Shown one piece after another: positions 2,842 to 42,053 of a DNA stretch of 53,656 bases (position 1 is its first letter; each line of letters starts with the position of its first letter). The position numbers were made by a program, and so were the translations under genes. The notes under the pieces are model-generated. The model did no database searches. It was not told where the DNA came from and saw nothing but the letters and a program-made list of their open reading frames with translations. Source of the DNA: a virus. Lineage: Duplodnaviria; Caudoviricetes. The stretch spans positions 1-53,656 of IMG/VR virus record IMGVR_UViG_3300023181_000009. The stretch is one strand, 5' to 3'.

Positions 2842-3168
2842 ATGTTAACAGGAAAAGCGAAAGAGGCATTTATATCATGGATGCATACAAAACCAAATTA
2901 CCCTTATTCAACTATATTTAATTTACCTATTGTAATTCAAACAGCTTTTATTATTGAATGGTTAGATACAGTTGGTTATTTAATACAAATAACTTTAGAT
3001 TATGATAAAATGTTTGAATACAATAGAGGTTTTGACTGGGAGTTAAGAATAGATAAAGGTGGTAAATATAATAATAATCGTGATTGTTTTGAAGATAGAG
3101 AAGAAGGATTAATAAATGCTATAAATAAGTCTAACGAAATATACAACCTAAACCATGAACCTATTTGA
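2842..3168 (+). CDS. Hypothetical protein
   Basis: ORF within the operon. Confidence 0.7.
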   Translation: MLTGKAKEAFISWMHTKPNYPYSTIFNLPIVIQTAFIIEWLDTVGYLIQITLDYDKMFEYNRGFDWELRIDKGGKYNNNRDCFEDREEGLINAINKSNEIYNLNHEPI

Positions 3169-3868
3169 TATCTCAATACCATTTATAGGATTTATAGCTT
3201 TAATATTCGCTTTAGTTCACAAGAATAAAAACAAGCGTTGGTTAGTTATGGAAGACCCGACAATTGAAAAATACGACCCTGTTTTAGATGGTTATATAAA
3301 AATAACTAAAGAGCATGCGGAACTATGTAATAAATTGCGTTTAAACCCCGAATTAGAGCCTGTATTGAGTTTAAAAATAAAAAGGCTAAGTGGCATAATA
3401 AGGGAGTACGACAATGCTTTAAAAAGGCAGAAAAAATATAATAAGAATACTTTTAATATGGCTGTATCAAAAAAACAAAGACAAATAATACATGATAAGT
3501 TTGGTGGTAAGTGCGCTTATTGCGGATGTGAATTAGTAAAGGGATGGCATGTAGATGAAATATTACCTATACGTAGGAATATCATTTATGATTATAATAA
3601 ACGAAAGTTTGTGCCTGATGGAACTTGTATGCATCCTGAAAGATTACACATAGACAATCAATATCCTGCATGCGCATCATGCAATATTAATAAACACTCT
3701 ATGTCTTTAGAAGATTTTAGAAATAGTATTACAGGCTTCATGAAACATTTAAATGAGTCATCTACACAATATAAAATAGCTAAACGCTATGGGTTGATAT
3801 ACGAAACAATTAAACCTATAATATTTTACTTCGAAGAATATGAAAAAACTATTAATACTAACATTTAG
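3155..3868 (+). CDS. HNH endonuclease (domain begins at ATG 3458) with an in-frame membrane-anchored N-terminal extension
   Basis: CAYCG...WHVDE..P...NQYPACASCNINK; N-terminal hydrophobic segment. Confidence 0.8.
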   Translation: MNLFDISIPFIGFIALIFALVHKNKNKRWLVMEDPTIEKYDPVLDGYIKITKEHAELCNKLRLNPELEPVLSLKIKRLSGIIREYDNALKRQKKYNKNTFNMAVSKKQRQIIHDKFGGKCAYCGCELVKGWHVDEILPIRRNIIYDYNKRKFVPDGTCMHPERLHIDNQYPACASCNINKHSMSLEDFRNSITGFMKHLNESSTQYKIAKRYGLIYETIKPIIFYFEEYEKTINTNI

Positions 3869-33577: not shown

Positions 33578-34240
33578 ATGTATTTTATGAACTACATTAT
33601 TGAATTTCAGGAAAAATATAAAATACCTCTTACCGGCACACTCGATAGGAAAACATTACTTAAAATGAAATCTGTTTGGGGTATAAGTAATAATCAATTA
33701 GCACATGTACTTGCAAATGTAGATAATGAGACAGGTAATTTTACGTTAGCTTATGAGAACCTGAATTATTCAGCTAAACGTCTTATTGAAATATTTAAGT
33801 ATCGACTTGACCGTAATAAAGACGGATGGTTAGATGCATCAGAAAAAGCTAAAATAAAAGAAATAGCAGGCAACCCTCAAAAGATTGCTAATTTTGTTTA
33901 TGCTGATCGTTATGGAAATGGTAATGAAGCATCCGGGGATGGATGGCGTTACAGAGGTCGCGGCGGCATTCAGGTTACTTTTAAATCTAACTACCAGGCT
34001 TTTTCTAATTTCACTAAGGATAAATCTATTATTGCTAATCCTGATTTAGTAGCTTCAAAATACTTTTGGGAAAGTGCTATTTGGTTCTTTACATACGCTA
34101 AGTTATGGAGCAAGATGTTATATAGTGACGAGGCAAGCGTAAAAGCTGTTAGAAAAGCTGTAAATGGCGGTGCAATAGGCTTGGATCATGTTCAAACAAA
34201 ATTTAAATACTACATTAAGCTTTTGAATGAAATAAATTAA
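33578..34240 (+). CDS. Endolysin, glycoside hydrolase family 19
   Basis: LAN..NET, ENLNYS, GNGNEASGDGWRYRGRGGIQVT..SNY, VNGG.IG; own promoter box TACCTTTG 33557-33564. Confidence 0.9.
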   Translation: MYFMNYIIEFQEKYKIPLTGTLDRKTLLKMKSVWGISNNQLAHVLANVDNETGNFTLAYENLNYSAKRLIEIFKYRLDRNKDGWLDASEKAKIKEIAGNPQKIANFVYADRYGNGNEASGDGWRYRGRGGIQVTFKSNYQAFSNFTKDKSIIANPDLVASKYFWESAIWFFTYAKLWSKMLYSDEASVKAVRKAVNGGAIGLDHVQTKFKYYIKLLNEIN

Positions 34241-34245
34241 AAAGT

Positions 34246-34271
34246 AAAGCCCCCGTAATGGAGGCTTTTTT
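34246..34271. terminator. Bidirectional terminator between convergent genes
   Basis: AAAGCCCC...GAGGCTTT plus T-tract at the strand switch. Confidence 0.7.
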
Positions 34272-34282
34272 ATTTTAAGTAG

Positions 34283-34639
34283 TTAGTTAACTTCTAATAT
34301 GTTTCTATAATCAAACAGTAAGCTTTTGCCTCTACCTGAAACCTTAAAATTGTAAATGCTATCCTTTTTTAAATGAAAGAATAAATCGCTATTATTATAC
34401 TTTACATTAACTAAAGAAGATTCACATACAAATGTTTCTCTATCAGTTATAACTAAGTATCTTATTTCAGTTGATACGCTTTTGCCTGTACCATGTATTA
34501 ATTGTTGCTGCTGCAATTCAATTATTTTTGCTCCATTAACCTTGCTTATGTTTAAACTATTGTCTATATTCAGTCCTATTATTATAATAAATGGTATTAA
34601 AACAATAGCAGTAACTATCCAAGTCCTTCTTTTTATCAT
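34283..34639 (-). CDS. Membrane-anchored phage protein (DUF1523-like)
   Basis: N-terminal TM; YLVITD.ETF...KYNNSDL...YNFKVSG. Confidence 0.55.
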   Translation of the reverse strand: MIKRRTWIVTAIVLIPFIIIIGLNIDNSLNISKVNGAKIIELQQQQLIHGTGKSVSTEIRYLVITDRETFVCESSLVNVKYNNSDLFFHLKKDSIYNFKVSGRGKSLLFDYRNILEVN

Positions 34640-34645
34640 GATTAA

Positions 34646-35032
34646 TTAGTCTATTTGATTACTATATAGTACTTCAGCTTTTTCTTTTATCTTTTGAAAA
34701 ACATCGTTATCTAATTCTTTTTGTGCTACACCTATAAAGAAACTTCCAAAATGCCTAACAGCCACTTTAGGATTATCCTTATTTAATCCTGAAATTCTAT
34801 TTTTTATTGTTGAATGTAATATCCCCAAAAGTGTTTTAAACCTTATGTTTTTAGAATATGTTTCATAAGGTACTGGTGTACCTTTCTCTTTTAAATCCTT
34901 AAAGTTATCAATTGCGGCCTTCATATGAGACATAAGCTTTAACAACTCAATTTCATAATTTAAAAGTATAGATATATCTTGACAATCTATTATATCCTGT
35001 TCTGTAAAACTAAGTGTTTTAATTTCTATCAT
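34646..35032 (-). CDS. Hypothetical protein
   Basis: ORF within the operon. Confidence 0.65.
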   Translation of the reverse strand: MIEIKTLSFTEQDIIDCQDISILLNYEIELLKLMSHMKAAIDNFKDLKEKGTPVPYETYSKNIRFKTLLGILHSTIKNRISGLNKDNPKVAVRHFGSFFIGVAQKELDNDVFQKIKEKAEVLYSNQID

Positions 35033-35037
35033 AATTA

Positions 35038-35751
35038 TTATTTGTTTTTTTGGTTATATTTTTTAATTATAAAATCAATGCCTTTTTGATACACTACAGT
35101 TTTAAGGCTGATATTCACGCTGCCATCGGGTTTATTATATTTGCTTTCTATAACCCTGAAATAACCCGCGTCGATATATGTTTGATAAGGGGTGTTATTT
35201 TCGCGTAGTATTGATATATCCCTTAAGAACTCAAACAGTTTATTCCTACCTACACCTAAATTACAAACTTTAGCAACGTCCACCATATCAAATGCATCTT
35301 TACTGCCTGTTACCTGTTCGTAAAACTCAACCTTTGGTTTATTATCTTCTAATAACTTTTGTTGAGCCTCGATTTGTTCAGCTTGTTTAGCCGCCAACAT
35401 TAAAGCTTCTGAAAATGTTTGTGGTAAAGTGTGATTTTTAGACTTTAATTCTTTTTCGCATTGAATAAAGTATTGCCTTGCTATCTTACCTTTTTCAGTC
35501 CTGTGTATCATAGATATTTCTTTTGCCATATCTAAGTTAAAGGCATAATCTATAATATCAATTCTGCCGCCTTTTAAGTTGTCGTCTTTTTTGGAAACAA
35601 CCTCAATGTAGTCTTTACCCTCAGTAAACCCATACTCAAACATTCTTTTACACCATTTTGTAAATTCTGTTTTAATTTCTAAAAATTTGTGCAATTCTCT
35701 TGCTGAAATAACACCACCACTTTCGTTGTGCTTAATATTTATTAGTTCCAT
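35038..35751 (-). CDS. ant: Phage antirepressor (AntA/AntB N-terminus plus KilAC C-terminus)
   Basis: ISARELHKFL...DMAKEISM...ARQYFI; LPQTFSEAL; KPKVEFY; GRNKLFEFLR; PYQTYIDAGYF. Confidence 0.88.
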   Translation of the reverse strand: MELINIKHNESGGVISARELHKFLEIKTEFTKWCKRMFEYGFTEGKDYIEVVSKKDDNLKGGRIDIIDYAFNLDMAKEISMIHRTEKGKIARQYFIQCEKELKSKNHTLPQTFSEALMLAAKQAEQIEAQQKLLEDNKPKVEFYEQVTGSKDAFDMVDVAKVCNLGVGRNKLFEFLRDISILRENNTPYQTYIDAGYFRVIESKYNKPDGSVNISLKTVVYQKGIDFIIKKYNQKNK

Positions 35752-35758
35752 AAAATAT

Positions 35759-35852
35759 AAAAACCCTTGAAATCCGAGGTCGTAGGCTCTTCATTCAAGG
35801 GAATTTTAATAATGTTTTTATTTGTAGCTACGACTCTACGAATACAAATATA
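35759..35852 (-). promoter_or_regulatory. Promoter plus structured kissing-loop leader (copy A)
   Basis: TATATTTG (35845-35852); hairpin GTAG-AGTCGTAG-CTAC; terminator-like hairpin with loop CCTACGAC. Confidence 0.65.
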
Positions 35853-35907
35853 TAAAAAGATTCATTACTTTAGCAAAGTAATTTTCATGTAATAAGTTTT
35901 AAGGGGT

Positions 35908-35937
35908 AAAAACCGTGTAGCAATGCACGGTTTTTTT
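35908..35937. terminator. Bidirectional terminator-like hairpin
   Basis: AAAAACCGTGTA-gcaa-TGCACGGTTTTTTT. Confidence 0.7.
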
Positions 35938-35956
35938 GTTTGTATACGATATCATC

Positions 35957-35993
35957 CTAAAAATAGTATGGTTTCGTGCTAAAAATAGTATGG
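35957..35993. repeat. 15-bp direct repeat pair, 22 bp apart
   Basis: CTAAAAATAGTATGG at 35957 and 35979. Confidence 0.85.
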
Positions 35994-36057
35994 CTTAATG
36001 GTAATATTATTTTGTTTAAGTATTTGACTACCTTTGTTTAAACTAAAAAACAATATT

Positions 36058-36552
36058 ATGAAACGATTATTACTAACCATTTTGTTGACGATAACAATAT
36101 GGTCGTTAACATCCTGCGATATACAAAAGCAAGCATCAAAGACTAAAACCGATACGGACTTTAAAGAGCAAATAGAAACTACTGAAAAACGTGATGGTGG
36201 TATTGCTACATATATTCCACCGGCAAACATAGTTTATAGAGATACGACAATTTACGTACAAGGAACTAACGGCACGCAGCTTAAGGTAATATACGATAAA
36301 CAAGGAATAATTCAACAGGCAGACTGTAATGCAGCTTTAATCGAAGTTATTACAAAGTACAATAGCCAATTATTACAAACTACTAAGGAAAAAGAGAAAA
36401 CTAAGACAGAGGAATTTAATACAACATGGGTATTATACCTAATTGGGGGCGTTGTGTTGATGTTTTCTATAGTAATATTCCTTATGTACCGTACTATAAA
36501 TAAAAATTCCGATAACGTTGCGGAATTGATTAATGCTATTAAAAATAAATAA
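36058..36552 (+). CDS. Putative unimolecular spanin
   Basis: Lipobox SLTS-C plus C-terminal TM WVLYLIGGVVLMFSIVIFLM; promoter box TACCTTTG 36029-36036. Confidence 0.65.
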   Translation: MKRLLLTILLTITIWSLTSCDIQKQASKTKTDTDFKEQIETTEKRDGGIATYIPPANIVYRDTTIYVQGTNGTQLKVIYDKQGIIQQADCNAALIEVITKYNSQLLQTTKEKEKTKTEEFNTTWVLYLIGGVVLMFSIVIFLMYRTINKNSDNVAELINAIKNK

Positions 36553-36617
36553 GTATATTTACACCCTATTGTTTTTTTGTTATTTTCTATTCAAACTATT
36601 TATTGTTTTTTGTCTTT

Positions 36618-36652
36618 AGTCCCGAAGTACTCCCATGCTTCGGGACTTTTTT
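36618..36652 (+). terminator. Intrinsic terminator
   Basis: AGTCCCGAAGTA-ctccca-TGCTTCGGGACT plus T-tract. Confidence 0.8.
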
Positions 36653-36848
36653 ATTTCCTCTTTTTCTTTTTAGGTTTTAAATGTGTCATTTTATTTCTAA
36701 TCTTACCACTACCTTTAGTTTCTATAGCTTTTAAAGATTCAATAATTGCATTAGAAGTTTCAATTATACTTTCTACAATTCGGCTTTCTTTAGCATACCT
36801 ATCTATTTCGCATAAATAAGGGTTCTCATAATTTCCTTTACTACTCAT
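36651..36848 (-). CDS. Small basic protein
   Basis: ORF ending at the terminator. Confidence 0.55.
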   Translation of the reverse strand: MSSKGNYENPYLCEIDRYAKESRIVESIIETSNAIIESLKAIETKGSGKIRNKMTHLKPKKKKRK

Positions 36849-36964
36849 AATTAAATGGTTTTTATTTTATATTTTATGTGCAGCTATAATTAAAGCTATT
36901 CCTAAAAATAATGCAAATATTATTAACGCGCAGCCGGAAGCATCTGGACCTATTTTATTTTTAC

Positions 36965-37153
36965 TCATGACATTTTATCTTTATTGATTAATTTAAGGTT
37001 TTCGGCATCGTAATCGCGTTTCATGGCATCTTTATAATCTGATATTTTAACGGTTATATACCAGTATATATTTAGCAATATAAATCCCCATGCTATAATT
37101 CCGCTAATTATTAAGAAACGCCAGTACCATGATAGGTTTGTTAGTTCATCCAT
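36965..37153 (-). CDS. Small membrane protein
   Basis: Single TM segment. Confidence 0.6.
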   Translation of the reverse strand: MDELTNLSWYWRFLIISGIIAWGFILLNIYWYITVKISDYKDAMKRDYDAENLKLINKDKMS

Positions 37154-37535
37154 GTTTGTATAATTTAAGTAGTTGTGTGACCTTTAAAAGCTTTCTTGAT
37201 AGTTCTTCATGTTCTCTTTCCAATGTTTTAATGAATAGCTCATTATTATCAATTTCCTGTAAAGCTTTTAAACTGCTTATACCGCCATCATCTATTACTT
37301 CAATAAATTCTTTACTTGCTTTTATGGGTTTTAATTCTTCTTTATAGCCAATATGTAGATTGTGAAATGAAGCAAACTTTTCTAACTGGGTATAAACTTC
37401 GTTATCGTCTACATGGTTTTTATAAACACCCGATTCCTTCGCTTTGCCTATTAAAAACTTTCGGTCTTTAGTTCCGTATCGCTCAATAATAGACTTTAGC
37501 AATTCTCTTTTTATAGCTGTTGATTTATCTTCCAT
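37146..37535 (-). CDS. Hypothetical protein
   Basis: ORF within the operon. Confidence 0.65.
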   Translation of the reverse strand: MEDKSTAIKRELLKSIIERYGTKDRKFLIGKAKESGVYKNHVDDNEVYTQLEKFASFHNLHIGYKEELKPIKASKEFIEVIDDGGISSLKALQEIDNNELFIKTLEREHEELSRKLLKVTQLLKLYKHG

Positions 37536-37968
37536 TCATTTTACTTTCTAATGTTATTTCGCTAAATTCAAAGTAAGGCTTTTTAGGCTTTTTATGTATT
37601 GGGTATATAGGGTTTAAATTTATCTTGTCAATTACAGATCTTTTATAATAAAGGTTATAATTATATCTGTAAGGTTTTAGCTTTATTTGAAAAACTATGT
37701 GTTTGGCCTGTGAAACATTTACTCCTAAAACCTTTGATACTTTGTGTATAGAATAGTCATCAGTAAGTAATTTAAAATTAACCGCTTCTAATCCTATATC
37801 AACTCTTCTAACATCATAAGATTTGGCTGCTTTTATTTCTGTATCGCAAAACCTTGAAACCCATCTTACCCCTGTAAATACATGCATTGCGTACCATCTT
37901 TCTTTAATTACGCCTCTATATTTAATAATCTTAAAATATACACCTCTATAAATTAATGATTTTGGCAT
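37525..37968 (-). CDS. AP2-like DNA-binding protein with a C-terminal HTH
   Basis: YRGVY...RWYA...F.TEIKAAKSYD; YSIHKVSKVLGV. Confidence 0.55.
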   Translation of the reverse strand: MPKSLIYRGVYFKIIKYRGVIKERWYAMHVFTGVRWVSRFCDTEIKAAKSYDVRRVDIGLEAVNFKLLTDDYSIHKVSKVLGVNVSQAKHIVFQIKLKPYRYNYNLYYKRSVIDKINLNPIYPIHKKPKKPYFEFSEITLESKMNGR

Positions 37969-37970
37969 AC

Positions 37971-38156
37971 TTAATAAACTATTAAACTTAAAAGCAATAA
38001 TAAAGCCGATACAGCCGTAAACACAAATGAGAAGCGCATATCTTCAAGTGTTGCGCCTTTTGTCCTGTATGCTCCTATAAATAAGCCTAAGCCTATTATA
38101 AAAGCAACCACTAATGCTAACTTAAGCATTAGTGGACTGTTTACTATAAGTTCCAT
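37971..38156 (-). CDS. Small two-TM protein
   Basis: Hydrophobic segments. Confidence 0.6.
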   Translation of the reverse strand: MELIVNSPLMLKLALVVAFIIGLGLFIGAYRTKGATLEDMRFSFVFTAVSALLLLLSLIVY

Positions 38157-38299
38157 TATGGATTAAGTGTTTTTAATGTGGATATAGCAATATTCATAGC
38201 TTCTGTTAAATCTCGTGGATGTGTCATAGGTATTTCAGCACCCATACGCCAATTTTGATGCTTTTCTAAAATCCTAATTTCTTGTTTTAAGTCCATAAT

Positions 38300-38557
38300 T
38301 TAGTTAGTTAAATATACCGATAGGTTTTCTACAAATGGAACTGTTTTAATACCGCATTCTCTTTGGTATTCAGCACAACCAACACTGCCTGTAGAAAAGT
38401 CACTATTTTTTTTTGCTTTCAATACTACAGCAGTTTCACGAGTTAGCATATTATCATGCCACCCAATATATAATACTTCTTTAGTTAAAAAGTTTTGTAC
38501 CTTTTTATATTCTGCTTCGTTTGTAACTATTACAGAAATCCCTTTTTGTTTACTCAT
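38300..38557 (-). CDS. Hypothetical protein
   Basis: ORF within the operon. Confidence 0.65.
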   Translation of the reverse strand: MSKQKGISVIVTNEAEYKKVQNFLTKEVLYIGWHDNMLTRETAVVLKAKKNSDFSTGSVGCAEYQRECGIKTVPFVENLSVYLTN

Positions 38558-38565
38558 GATTAATT

Positions 38566-38880
38566 CTATTTACAAGGTAATTTATTAATTTGTCTAACCT
38601 GTACGTATTTATCCCAACCCTTTGTTTCAAAGTTATAATTGTAATGTGTAGCAATTTCATAATGCTTACCATCGCTTGCTGTGCCTGAAATTACCGTGTC
38701 CATTCCATACTCTTCTCTGCAATGAACACCTATTTTAATAGTTCCTGTAGTTGTTGTAACAGTAAGCGTGTTATTAATTGTAGGCTGTGTGCCGGGACTT
38801 AAATTATTATCAAATCCAGTTTGTTGCGCGGTCATGTTTAATGCTGTAAATAGCATTGCTGTAATAAAAAGTGTTTTCAT
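38566..38880 (-). CDS. Secreted protein (signal peptide)
   Basis: MKTLFITAMLFTALNMTA/QQ; Gln at +1 is typical of Bacteroidota SPI substrates. Confidence 0.65.
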   Translation of the reverse strand: MKTLFITAMLFTALNMTAQQTGFDNNLSPGTQPTINNTLTVTTTTGTIKIGVHCREEYGMDTVISGTASDGKHYEIATHYNYNFETKGWDKYVQVRQINKLPCK

Positions 38881-39013
38881 TATTAATCGTTTTTAAATTG
38901 TTGATGTTGAAAGTAAAAAGCAAGAACCGCACTAATGAAAAGTAAAAAGGCTAAAAAGGCACATATAAAAATACATATTTCCTTTGCGTTTTTATATTCT
39001 AAGTTTGTCATAA

Positions 39014-39826
39014 TTAATCGTTTTTCAGCGTTATTGGTTCGCCTTTGTATAGTTTAAAATCTGATTTATCAAAAGAATCATATTCTCCGTGTCTTAAATT
39101 AGTGTAATCAGGAGATGTATAAATCATAGTTCCAAGAAACTTATCATAGTATTGATTTCCGATTGGATTACTCAAAACTAAATACGGTTTTCCATGACCC
39201 TTATGTTCAAGTATATTTGATTTAGACCAATCTATACTTTCAGGTTCTTTGGCGTGTTCATTTTCCTTAAGCACTAAGCGTTTAAAGTCTTCGGTGGATA
39301 GTAAAATATAATCTTCTTTTTTGCGGAAAGTAGTTTCTAAACCGCTTGTTACGTAAATAATAGGATGTTTTTCGGATCTATCTATATAATCGTAAATATT
39401 GGTGTTTACCCACTCTATAATTTCATAGTTATCAGCTTTAACACACCACTTTTCAGGCAATTCAGTAAGTTCTTTATTTACCGGCGCATCGTTACAATTA
39501 GCTACTTCATCAGTATTAACTTCAATGTTGTTTATTTCCTGCATAAAATCAGATCCTTTTTCCAATATATTAATCTTACGTTCAAGTGCCTTTACACGCT
39601 TGTTTAATGAGGGTTTAAGAAACTTTGAAGCAGAAAATATACAATATGTGTTTGGTATAGAAACAACAAGAGTAAAATTATATTCAGCGTGTTTAATAGC
39701 GTAAAAACCATGCTTAAACTTTGGATTATATCCGTATGTGTCTTTAAATAATTTATTTATACCCTTAGCCTCTTTTTTAGTTTTGATGTGTATAACATCA
39801 TTTGGTTTTAAATCTGTAATTTTCAT
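39014..39826 (-). CDS. Modular hypothetical protein
   Basis: 270 aa ORF containing an LPEKWCVK module. Confidence 0.7.
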   Translation of the reverse strand: MKITDLKPNDVIHIKTKKEAKGINKLFKDTYGYNPKFKHGFYAIKHAEYNFTLVVSIPNTYCIFSASKFLKPSLNKRVKALERKINILEKGSDFMQEINNIEVNTDEVANCNDAPVNKELTELPEKWCVKADNYEIIEWVNTNIYDYIDRSEKHPIIYVTSGLETTFRKKEDYILLSTEDFKRLVLKENEHAKEPESIDWSKSNILEHKGHGKPYLVLSNPIGNQYYDKFLGTMIYTSPDYTNLRHGEYDSFDKSDFKLYKGEPITLKND

Positions 39827-39836
39827 TGTTTTTGTT

Positions 39837-40034
39837 TTAAGTGTTTTTATAACTGTGAAATCCTTTTTGAAAGCTGCTGTAAGTCCATCCTTTAATTTGT
39901 TTCATATATATAAATGCTTTAAATGTCATTTGCCTAACCATTATTATATCGTCTTTAAAAGCTACTACATCAACTATAGTTTCAGCAGGTGTTTTTAAAA
40001 ATAGATGGTCTTTGTTAGCTTTTGGTAGTGCCAT
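39837..40034 (-). CDS. Hypothetical protein
   Basis: ORF within the operon. Confidence 0.6.
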   Translation of the reverse strand: MALPKANKDHLFLKTPAETIVDVVAFKDDIIMVRQMTFKAFIYMKQIKGWTYSSFQKGFHSYKNT

Positions 40035-40311
40035 TACATCTGTTTATTTCATGTTTAATGTGATTTATAGACCTCCAACATGCATTAAATCCATTAGGTG
40101 TTTTACCTTTGTCATCTAATATATTAAACACAGCATCCTTATTTTTGTTTTGTGCCATTAAAACCCATAACCCTTTATATTTAAAATGAATATTACCATA
40201 GTATAAATCCTTTTTAGGTAGCCCATCATTAAGCATATCAATAAGGATATTTGCATTCTCAATAACAATAGATTCATCAAACGCATCTAAAAGGTTTAAC
40301 TGGGAACTCAT
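40015..40311 (-). CDS. Hypothetical protein
   Basis: ORF within the operon. Confidence 0.6.
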   Translation of the reverse strand: MSSQLNLLDAFDESIVIENANILIDMLNDGLPKKDLYYGNIHFKYKGLWVLMAQNKNKDAVFNILDDKGKTPNGFNACWRSINHIKHEINRCNGTTKS

Positions 40312-40652
40312 CTTTTAATTGTTCCGTTTAAATATTCCGTTATTTCTTCTTTGGTAAAAGTTACATCCGAATCAAATCCATCTTTTAATACGAATATGTC
40401 GGTAATTGTTATAGTTTCTATTTCTGAAATGTCGTAATCTAAAAAATCATCATAAATTTCATATACAGTATTAACTTTAACTTCAACATCAATGTAAACA
40501 CATAACTCATATTCGTTATATATTCCAGTTAAAGATAAACTTTGCTTTTCCAAGTTATTGTTATCGAAAACCTCGTTTATATCTTCAAGGTTCTTAAGTA
40601 GGTTTTGTTTTATAGTTTGCATAACCTTAATTTTTATCGTGAATAGTACCAA
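40308..40652 (-). CDS. Acidic hypothetical protein
   Basis: Likely start at MQTIK; very D/E-rich. Confidence 0.6.
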   Translation of the reverse strand: MVLFTIKIKVMQTIKQNLLKNLEDINEVFDNNNLEKQSLSLTGIYNEYELCVYIDVEVKVNTVYEIYDDFLDYDISEIETITITDIFVLKDGFDSDVTFTKEEITEYLNGTIKR

Positions 40653-40962
40653 CCACTTCTAACCATTTTTCGCAGTCCTTCAATTCCTGAACTTCAACGC
40701 ATGGGAATCTAATTACAAATTGGCAAGTGTCCTGATACCATTCTATAACACCACCATCTTTGCTTTTATCTCCTACATAAACATCTTTGCCGTTAATGTC
40801 TTTTTTGCCTGTGAATTGCATTAATTCAAGTTGATAGTAATCTCCATCAGTATCAAATTTACCTGCATGAAATCCATTATCCTTCTCGTACTTTATTTTA
40901 AACTGACCAACGTAAAGCATTTTATTATTTAGCTTATCAAACGCCCTAAACTTAATGTCCAT
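40627..40962 (-). CDS. YopX family protein
   Basis: IKFRAFDK...LMQFTGKKDINGKDVYVGD...EVVGTIHD. Confidence 0.88.
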   Translation of the reverse strand: MDIKFRAFDKLNNKMLYVGQFKIKYEKDNGFHAGKFDTDGDYYQLELMQFTGKKDINGKDVYVGDKSKDGGVIEWYQDTCQFVIRFPCVEVQELKDCEKWLEVVGTIHDKN

Positions 40963-40968
40963 AAAAAT

Positions 40969-41043
40969 AAAAACCCCAAAAGCAACGGTGGTAGTCGAAT
41001 ACTTAAGGGGAATTTGTTATACTGTTAGTAGCTACCACACTAC
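40969..41043 (-). promoter_or_regulatory. Structured kissing-loop leader (copy B)
   Basis: Hairpin GTAG-TGTGGTAG-CTAC; terminator-like hairpin with loop ACTACCAC. Confidence 0.6.
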
Positions 41044-41060
41044 ATTTATAACTTTTAAAA

Positions 41061-41522
41061 CTATATTTTATATTTATCTTTTACATCTTTAAGGCTAACC
41101 TTTATCAACTTATTTTCTTCTGCACTTCTCAATTTATTAAGGTTTTCTATTTGCTTTGTTAAATTTTCTATTACGTTTTTTATAGGCTCATTTTCATCAT
41201 TTGGCAGAAAATAACTTTGCTCATCATATTCAGATAATTGCCCCTTCATACCTTCCATGTCTTCCGCAATAAACCTGTTGTCTTTACGCAAGCCAACTAT
41301 TCTTAAAGTTTTTGCCTCGTTAAATACTGACCCATGTTTTTCTACAAAGAAAGGTGTAAACTCTGTATTGTACTTTATGTAATCATCTATAGACTTTTTA
41401 GCCGAAGCATAAGACTTTTTAGTTTCCTGTCTATCATATTTATCTGATACAGAATAAAAATTCTCGTTATCCGTATCAAAAAATATTTCAAATCCTCTGT
41501 AATTTTCTATTAGTGTTTTCAT
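41061..41522 (-). CDS. Hypothetical protein
   Basis: ORF within the operon. Confidence 0.7.
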   Translation of the reverse strand: MKTLIENYRGFEIFFDTDNENFYSVSDKYDRQETKKSYASAKKSIDDYIKYNTEFTPFFVEKHGSVFNEAKTLRIVGLRKDNRFIAEDMEGMKGQLSEYDEQSYFLPNDENEPIKNVIENLTKQIENLNKLRSAEENKLIKVSLKDVKDKYKI

Positions 41523-41524
41523 AT

Positions 41525-41782
41525 CTATTGTTTTAGTGAGTTTATAATATTCTCAACTTCTGTAATCCTGTTTAAGCAGTCTTCAACTCCTGTAGATGGC
41601 TTAATTGACTTATTTAAAAAGCCTCTAAGTGCAGTTTTAATAGTAGGGTAATAAAAGTTGTCAGTAAATTCGTAAGGCTCTTTAGAACCATCCTTTTTAT
41701 TTTCCTTTTCCCTTGTTTCAAAAAATTGAAGTATAACATTGTTTTCGTCTGTTATAATCCTGTAATTTTCGTTTAGTTCCAT
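41525..41782 (-). CDS. Hypothetical phage protein
   Basis: YRIITDENNVIL...YYPTIKTAL pattern. Confidence 0.65.
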   Translation of the reverse strand: MELNENYRIITDENNVILQFFETREKENKKDGSKEPYEFTDNFYYPTIKTALRGFLNKSIKPSTGVEDCLNRITEVENIINSLKQ

Positions 41783-41787
41783 TTTAT

Positions 41788-41940
41788 CTATTGTTTTTGT
41801 TTTTTGTAACCATCAAGTATTTTATAAACCTTTTCCTTTATTTCAGATTTGTGGATTGTAGGAACTAAAAATTGTATTGATTCTACTTTACCTTCAAACT
41901 TTCTTTTCCTTCCCGCGTTACGTTCGTTTTGTTTTGGCAT
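41788..41940 (-). CDS. Small DNA-binding-like protein (50 aa, absent from the ORF track)
   Basis: MPKQNERNAGRKRKFEGKVESIQFLVP...; NAGRK motif followed by a beta-alpha pattern. Confidence 0.5.
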   Translation of the reverse strand: MPKQNERNAGRKRKFEGKVESIQFLVPTIHKSEIKEKVYKILDGYKKQKQ

Positions 41941-42053
41941 ATAATAAATAATAAATAGTTGATAAATTTATCAACATTGTTGATATTTTATTTGACTTGA
42001 ATTCGTAATTAATAAGCAAAGTACTTATATACAGTTAGTTGGTTATTGACTGG

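Follow-up and report, generated by a model that had tools for sequence, protein, structure and literature searches.

The two leader copies described here, one before an antirepressor-like gene (ant, copy A) and the other before a yopX gene (copy B), are members of a real family of leader RNAs of about 85 nt that is widespread and uncatalogued. In each copy a 5' hairpin (H1) is followed by a linker and a terminator-like hairpin (T) with a U-tract, and the loops of the two hairpins pair with each other over seven bases as a kissing helix. The window, i.e. the whole stretch of DNA that was analyzed, spans all 53,656 bp of a complete virus record that has direct terminal repeats, and the leader occurs in it exactly twice. 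A covariance model run with filters off scored copy A at 84.5 bits and copy B at 62.5 bits, and the next best position in the window reached 15.7 bits (E = 1.4). The H1 word, with up to three mismatches allowed, matched twice in the window against 0.16 matches expected, and none of 100 shuffles reached two. Nested minimum-free-energy folds gave unremarkable z-scores (copy A, -1.65; copy B, -0.91), and the case for the family is therefore built on covariation and not on energy. No Rfam 15 family reached its gathering score in the whole window, with chance-level matches only at E ≤ 10 around both copies, and a search of 10 homologous loci at E ≤ 1 returned nothing, in keeping with the remark in the initial annotation that this architecture was not one it recognized. 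A Megablast of positions 34000-42000 against phage records gave no match.

The initial annotation described copy A on the - strand (35759-35852) as a promoter, two hairpins, a 22-nt spacer and a U-tract with an ATG about 12 nt further on, and every one of these parts is present at its place (Table 1). The 7-bp loop complementarity that it reported, GTCGTAG (35834-35828) with CTACGAC (35785-35779), is exact. T of copy A consists of a 7-bp outer stem, an internal loop (AUGAA/GGAUU) with tandem G.A, a 3-bp inner stem and the 8-nt apical loop CCTACGAC. The loop-2 heptad (L2) is placed 28-34 nt before the ant ATG, inside the terminator loop, and the ATG itself, at 35751, lies 12 nt past the last paired G. 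A hairpin that belongs to the upstream gene and is separate from the leader stands just before the cassette. A weak Rfam match to the Bacteroidetes FopS small-RNA family (35878-35940, + strand; 26.4 bits where the family's gathering score is 56, E = 0.056) coincides with this hairpin and is probably just hairpin likeness.

Table 1. Coordinates of the leader copies, their parts and the genes that they head in the window.
Feature	Position	Strand	Basis
Copy A, possible -33 promoter element TTTG, 21 nt upstream of the -7 box	35874..35877	-	weak, position only
Copy A, -7 promoter box TATATTTG, Bacteroidota sigma-A type TAnnTTTG	35845..35852	-	sequence reading and family position
Copy A, hairpin 1 (H1) GTAG[AGTCGTAG]CTAC, 4-bp stem, 8-nt loop AGTCGTAG	35824..35839	-	sequence, model, covariation
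Copy A, loop-1 (L1) heptad GUCGUAG, 5' side of kissing helix	35828..35834	-	exact complement of 35779-35785
Copy A, 22-nt A/U-rich linker with A run, 3' end AAAATT	35802..35823	-	sequence
Copy A, terminator hairpin (T) CCCTTGA-ATGAA-GAG[CCTACGAC]CTC-GGATT-TCAAGGG	35764..35801	-	sequence, fold, model
Copy A, L2 heptad CUACGAC in T apical loop, 3' side of kissing helix	35779..35785	-	complement of L1
Copy A, U-tract UUUUU directly 3' of T	35759..35763	-	sequence
Copy A cargo, 237-aa AntA + KilAC (ANT) protein	35038..35751	-	Pfam AntA 3.5e-24, ANT 1.3e-26; phrog_63 anti-repressor 2.3e-60
Terminator-like hairpin of upstream gene, just before cassette	35908..35935	both strands read as hairpin	12 pairs then T run
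Copy B, hairpin 1 GTAG[TGTGGTAG]CTAC; L1 heptad GUGGUAG at 41032-41038	41028..41043	-	62.5 bits
Copy B, terminator hairpin; L2 heptad CUACCAC at 40988-40994; without tandem G.A loop	40974..41010	-	sequence, fold, model
Copy B, U-tract	40969..40973	-	sequence
Copy B cargo, 111-aa YopX-family protein	40627..40962	-	Pfam YopX 4.4e-13

Copy B differs from copy A in the kissing helix by one C-G to G-C swap, in which both sides have changed and pairing is kept. Its 3' part reads GGGGTTTTT and is followed by the yopX ATG at 40962, which is separated from the last paired G by 11 nt. A TAnnTTTG box was looked for in copy B and none was found, the nearest candidate (TAGTTTTA, 12 nt upstream) having a disfavored G. 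The stop codon of the upstream ORF (41061-41522), for which a search found no relatives, precedes the start of the copy by 17 nt. Copy B retains H1, the 7-bp kissing helix and T without the promoter box and without the tandem G.A loop; the fold is thus maintained inside an operon, where a terminator role is still sensible and a role tied to an RNA 5' end is not.

Relatives of the two copies were collected with three patterns and a covariance model. The first, a loose pattern on the terminator base only, returned mostly unrelated hairpins together with about 14 loci that have the same layout and other complementary loop pairs. The covariance model (R1) was built from 13 sequences with nested helices only, the loop-loop helix being left out. 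A second pattern, which left loop 2 unconstrained throughout and loop 1 at three positions, yielded 81 viral loci, 78 of which R1 matched, and a third, with H1 and both loops wholly free, yielded at least 119 loci. Among the matches listed for this third pattern, a perfect complement of at least 7 nt between the upstream 60 nt and the hairpin core occurs in 60 of 87 distinct sequences, compared with 179 of 1706 mismatched control pairings. R1 alone, run on five complete virus records, found one to three copies in each, and these copies, whose loops no pattern constrained, contributed the new pairs GTGGAAG/CTTCCAC, GTAGTAG/CTACTAC and ATGCAAG/CTTGCAT. The pooled alignment (A6) comprises 100 hits from 99 sources, all on phage contigs, and 79 distinct rows. 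As AATTCCC and GGGTT were fixed in all three collection patterns, part of the conservation seen in the stem base and U-tract comes from the patterns themselves; a few hits found by R1 alone still keep AAUUCC and a U run (the U-tract for example in L204, L206 and L208).

The covariance model and homolog search that the initial annotation suggested as a check thus returned a family, and its 79 distinct sequences covary. Standard pairs form in 98.0% of the cells of A6 (shuffles, 73.5%), changes on both sides are seen at 20 of 22 pairs, and none of 500 shuffles reaches any of the observed measures; when the partners are slid by 1-3 columns, pairing falls to 33-48%. The proposal that the 5' hairpin pairs through its loop with a terminator-like hairpin after the promoter is borne out, as the kissing helix, which is absent from the R1 model, pairs in 100% of cells and covaries at 7/7 pairs among the 79 distinct sequences. 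The H1 stem covaries at 4/4 pairs (99.1% of cells paired), the inner stem of T at 4/4 and its outer stem at 5/7, and RNAalifold recovers H1 and T independently. Seventeen loop codes occur and every one is complementary, in one case with a G-U pair; an apparent 18th is an alignment gap. The paired columns hold 47 G-U cells and a single A-C cell, an excess that indicates selection on RNA of the same strand as the downstream gene and not on duplex DNA or the antisense strand.

In the consensus fold, each 8-nt loop consists of one unpaired 5' base, mostly A, with the other seven paired. The outer stem of T is 6-7 bp long and has CCC/GGG at its base; a symmetric internal loop separates it from an inner stem of 3-4 bp, which carries the 8-nt loop. 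In most copies the internal loop is 5'-UGAU/5'-UGAU, i.e. U.U, G.A, A.G and U.U. The linker is 16-24 nt long, with A kept at 72-92% in four of the five A-run columns. Copy A fits the whole consensus and copy B all of it except the G.A loop. Median energies are -1.4 kcal/mol for H1, -11.4 kcal/mol for T and -9.9 kcal/mol for the loop-loop duplex. Mutual information over all column pairs revealed no further covarying helix, none that involves the linker and no antiterminator helix: the top pairs all fall in H1, the kissing helix or T, and the rest reflect a one-base register shift of the internal loop between subfamilies. The leader RNA therefore has a single covarying fold, which does not point to a classical attenuator with two states. 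A leader peptide that would use the AUG and UGA conserved in the internal loop was considered and rejected. The two codons are in frame in the commonest subfamily (a 7-codon mini-ORF) and out of frame in another, and the tandem G.A motif explains both better. In copy A the internal-loop AUG opens a 20-codon frame (35732-35794, - strand) that overlaps the start of ant in another frame.

The position of the leader between a promoter and a start codon is as regular as its fold. Of the 79 distinct copies, 67 have a strict TAnnTTTG box that ends 3-6 nt upstream of H1 (48 at 5 nt, 17 at 4 nt), 10 more have TAnnTTTA at the same place, and copy B and L140 are without a box. The promoter consensus given in PMC6847099 is TTTG/TANNTTTG, and the G of the -7 box corresponds to position -5 in Flavobacterium johnsoniae promoters. 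With the box G at -5, the RNA start is predicted at H1 or one base before it, which for copy A is near 35840. The first ATG lies 5-19 nt past the last paired G in 77 of the 79 copies, most commonly at 11 nt (34/79), and this tight spacing between T and the ATG leaves no room for another promoter.

The genes downstream are mostly homing-endonuclease genes of the HNH and GIY-YIG types. Downstream proteins of 67 distinct loci from the second pattern set were clustered. In the largest cluster (27 members), seven of the nine members tested carry NUMOD4 and HNH_3, four of these also AP2, while one has AP2 only and one gave no hit. Both tested members of a cluster of 10 carry GIY-YIG and NUMOD3, and a cluster of 15 is a single 79-aa family to which no function is assigned. 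Smaller clusters consist of helicases (3), primase-like proteins (3) and DNA methylases (2), with two further pairs lacking an assigned function, and Ant, YopX and a 22-aa ORF occur once each. R1 found no match at E ≤ 1 in any of 34 loci with relatives of the copy A Ant protein; in the closest of them, at 74% identity, the upstream region is unrelated. With none of 34 ant homologs carrying it and mostly nuclease cargo, the leader is not an antirepressor device. No integrase hit was obtained among the 82 scanned ORFs of the record, so the name 'antirepressor' may not describe the role of the gene here. What the window adds to the family is that the leader is not confined to nuclease genes, as ant and yopX show, and that a promoter-less copy in an operon still keeps the fold.

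The leader is essentially a phage element. In bacterial and archaeal genomes (one per species, 185,579 in total), a strict pattern matched 78 places and R1 confirmed two, both on short metagenome-bin contigs, and 150 further genomes from the phylum of one such bin (G006) gave no hits. Within phages it spreads as a module. Among 84 leader pairs that are at least 90% identical, 25 precede proteins without BLAST similarity to one another, which is an upper figure because some of the compared proteins are cut by the ends of their loci. The flanks of those 25 pairs, taken as 100 nt on the upstream side and the gene's first 100 nt, are mostly 0.3-0.4 identical, with a range of 0.27-0.98, and three pairs share the upstream flank at 0.8-0.98 identity. 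The clearest case is provided by L190, with a GIY-YIG gene, and L291, with a NUMOD4-HNH gene, whose leaders are 96% identical. In two syntenic loci (L143, 1498-2097, and L174, 982-1581), a common upstream helicase-like gene is followed by leaders that are 68% identical, and the loci diverge just past the ATG into an HNH endonuclease gene in one and a DNA methylase gene in the other.

The reading that we prefer, with a probability of about one half, is that the leader is a self-contained, portable, promoter-proximal attenuator in which the kissing helix fixes one fold in any context. A host-type Bacteroidota promoter would start the transcript at the weak 4-bp H1 or one base before it, and seven of the eight H1 loop bases pair with seven of the eight bases of the T apical loop. 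The GC clamp and U-tract would make T an intrinsic terminator, with the AUG about 11 nt later, and placement of the AUG past the terminator implies that the gene is transcribed only via read-through. Most transcripts would stop at the U-tract and a set fraction would continue into an accessory gene that may be harmful. By locking the leader fold, the kissing helix could make the dose independent of the flanks into which the cassette has recombined. Judged from its sequence features, T probably terminates a share of transcripts and the cargo is probably expressed by read-through, and the kissing helix may set the efficiency. Judged by rough geometry, a linker of about 22 nt looks long enough for the kissing helix and T to coexist. 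Preservation of the copy B fold inside an operon supports a role that needs neither a 5' end nor a private promoter. Counting against the attenuator is the folding of T at about -11 kcal/mol without the kissing helix, which is therefore not required for T to form, and by analogy with guanidine-IV, whose kissing loop works against the terminator, the effect here could have the opposite sign.

The first alternative to be weighed, which we regard as unlikely, is a factor-controlled switch in which the kissing complex, together with the tandem G.A loop and the A-rich linker, would bind a phage or host protein or a ligand, and this binding would shut off termination at a defined time during infection. 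Such control would resemble N/nut or Q control, or a riboswitch. It would account for the conservation of unpaired parts (tandem G.A flanked by U.U in most copies, the A run of the linker), for a cargo gene without another route to transcription and for a parallel with the homing endonucleases of T-even phages, which are timed (PMC2988022). Against it, the loops vary freely over 17 codes and leave no conserved ligand pocket, the mutual-information scan offers no alternative helix for a switch, copy B keeps the rest of the structure without the G.A motif, and the analysis turned up no candidate factor.

Less probable again is a 5' stabilizer or translation insulator, a compact fold that protects the 5' end of the read-through mRNA and keeps the U-rich start region unstructured. 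H1 begins at +1 or +2 in most copies and the AUG lies outside the fold, consistent with the reliance of Bacteroidota translation on low structure near the start codon described in PMC6847099. The GC clamp and U-tract are left unexplained by this role, and copy B keeps the fold away from any 5' end.

The terminated leader of about 85 nt could itself be the product, an abundant and compact small RNA that acts in trans, for example by exchanging loops with nascent leaders that carry an identical code. The layout of the leader, a strong promoter immediately followed by a terminator, is that of a small-RNA gene, both ends of the leader are base-paired, and a loop-loop duplex of about -10 kcal/mol with many loop codes would suit such exchange. 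This role is nevertheless distinctly unlikely, since the tight AUG spacing and the cargo without a promoter of its own argue for action in cis, and copy B and L140 have no promoter box. Selection for orthogonal codes was also considered and rejected: codes differ within four of five multi-copy records, no more often than the roughly 85% expected by chance from code frequencies. A more elaborate version, improbable and advanced by analogy, would be an addressable, protein-free RNA device, in which terminated leaders build up from a strong promoter, swap loops through the 7-nt code only with nascent leaders of the same code, shift the balance between kissing helix and terminator, much as a ligand does in guanidine-IV, and so let the cassette feed back on its own read-through. 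Kissing loops are used in plasmid copy-number control, to which a device of this kind, placed before selfish phage genes, might be likened.

An element that works mainly at the DNA level, for instance as a homing target, as an inverted-repeat operator or as a PeSL-like site of recombination, is very unlikely. Homology stops at the cassette borders and cargo is swapped there, as has been proposed for PeSL (PMC4122927), and a recombination role may coexist with an RNA role; the ratio of G-U to A-C cells (47 to 1) is instead the mark of selection on one RNA strand, and compensatory changes are present in four helices. In the P1/P7 c4 and P4 CI systems, short complementary RNA segments lie within one transcript and antirepressor genes are among the targets, and in P1/P7 c4 the complementary targets overlap the site at which translation of the controlled gene begins. 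The initial annotation had drawn a tie to antirepressor control of this antisense kind, which is given almost no weight here even though copy A adjoins an Ant-family gene and has complementary short sequences, for the library, in which we take the curated C4 models to be included, gave no match, the leader is not linked to ant among the 34 homolog loci, the pairing partner is the terminator loop and not the region of the start codon, and the same leader stands before endonuclease, helicase, primase-like and methylase genes.

It should be noted that several known systems share part of this design. The closest architecture is that of guanidine-IV (the mepA motif), in which the loop of a 5' hairpin kisses the loop of a hairpin that extends into the terminator within a promoter-proximal leader; this kissing loop is ligand-dependent, is helped by a short linker and competes with completion of the full terminator stem (PMC11611296). 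The leader described here has seven perfect pairs and a linker of 16-24 nt, its loops are free to vary in place of the conserved loop nucleotides of guanidine-IV, and it precedes ant, yopX, HNH, GIY-YIG, helicase, primase-like and methylase genes in place of guanidine export and detoxification genes. The mepA model, presumably also part of the Rfam library, gave no guanidine-IV match here.

The closest biology is the control of homing-endonuclease genes in T-even phages (mobE, segF, I-TevI, segB and seg43(25)), where RNA structures on the 5' side or intrinsic terminators are reported to restrain expression (PMC2988022). Those elements are either single hairpins, which often mask the ribosome-binding site, or terminators located within the coding sequence, and have neither a loop-loop helix nor a portable conserved sequence common to unrelated genes, whereas the leader has both. 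They serve nuclease genes, unlike the leaders in this window with their ant and yopX cargo. In genomic behavior the closest counterparts are the PeSL motifs of T4-like phages, short promoter-plus-hairpin modules at the borders of swapped accessory genes (PMC4122927), and the leader shares this border location. The PeSL stem-loop lies upstream of an early promoter of sigma-70 type and no RNA tertiary pairing is described for it, while the order here is a Bacteroidota-type promoter box, H1 and terminator, with covariation at the RNA level. The leader lacks defining features of each of guanidine-IV, the T-even elements and PeSL. With the classical attenuator or riboswitch platform it shares a terminator hairpin and U-tract between promoter and gene, and the mutually exclusive antiterminator helix was not found.

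A literature search found no description of the motif, though it may be listed unnamed in a catalog of 10,006 viral candidate RNAs from the same collection (PMC10690425). Some candidates in that catalog precede NUMOD4/HNH genes, and one of them, DNAVirus_2711, is marine and partly archaeal. The leader word is absent from the six supplementary files of PMC10690425 that were searched.

These results describe a well-supported structured RNA family missing from Rfam. Its unusual anatomy apparently couples a constitutive, freely recoded kissing loop to an intrinsic terminator, and the unit, about 100 bp in length, moves among Bacteroidota phages. To our knowledge, gene control in Bacteroidota is poorly known and these bacteria use no Shine-Dalgarno sequence. 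Should the leader dose transcription, selfish nuclease genes and other accessory genes would bring their own context-proof expression control with them, and the leader could serve as a compact, recodable terminator part for engineering Bacteroidota.

Several minor observations concern the record and the cassettes. Head, tail and lysis genes of the record occupy the + strand to about 34.2 kb, and replication and recombination genes with many small ORFs occupy the - strand from about 52.9 to 34.3 kb. This phage has an HNH endonuclease gene of its own (3155-3865, + strand; phrog_2118, 9.8e-41) that no leader precedes. The 79-aa family (L183, 1587-1823, and 14 related loci) is the second commonest cargo and has no Pfam hit. 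On one contig, two leaders about 11 kb apart (L351 and L358) share the loop code GTGGACG, and the genes after them begin in the same way, which looks like a recent duplication of leader plus cargo. In another locus (L191), a second leader and a 170-aa ORF precede a gene of the 79-aa family, giving two tandem cassettes.
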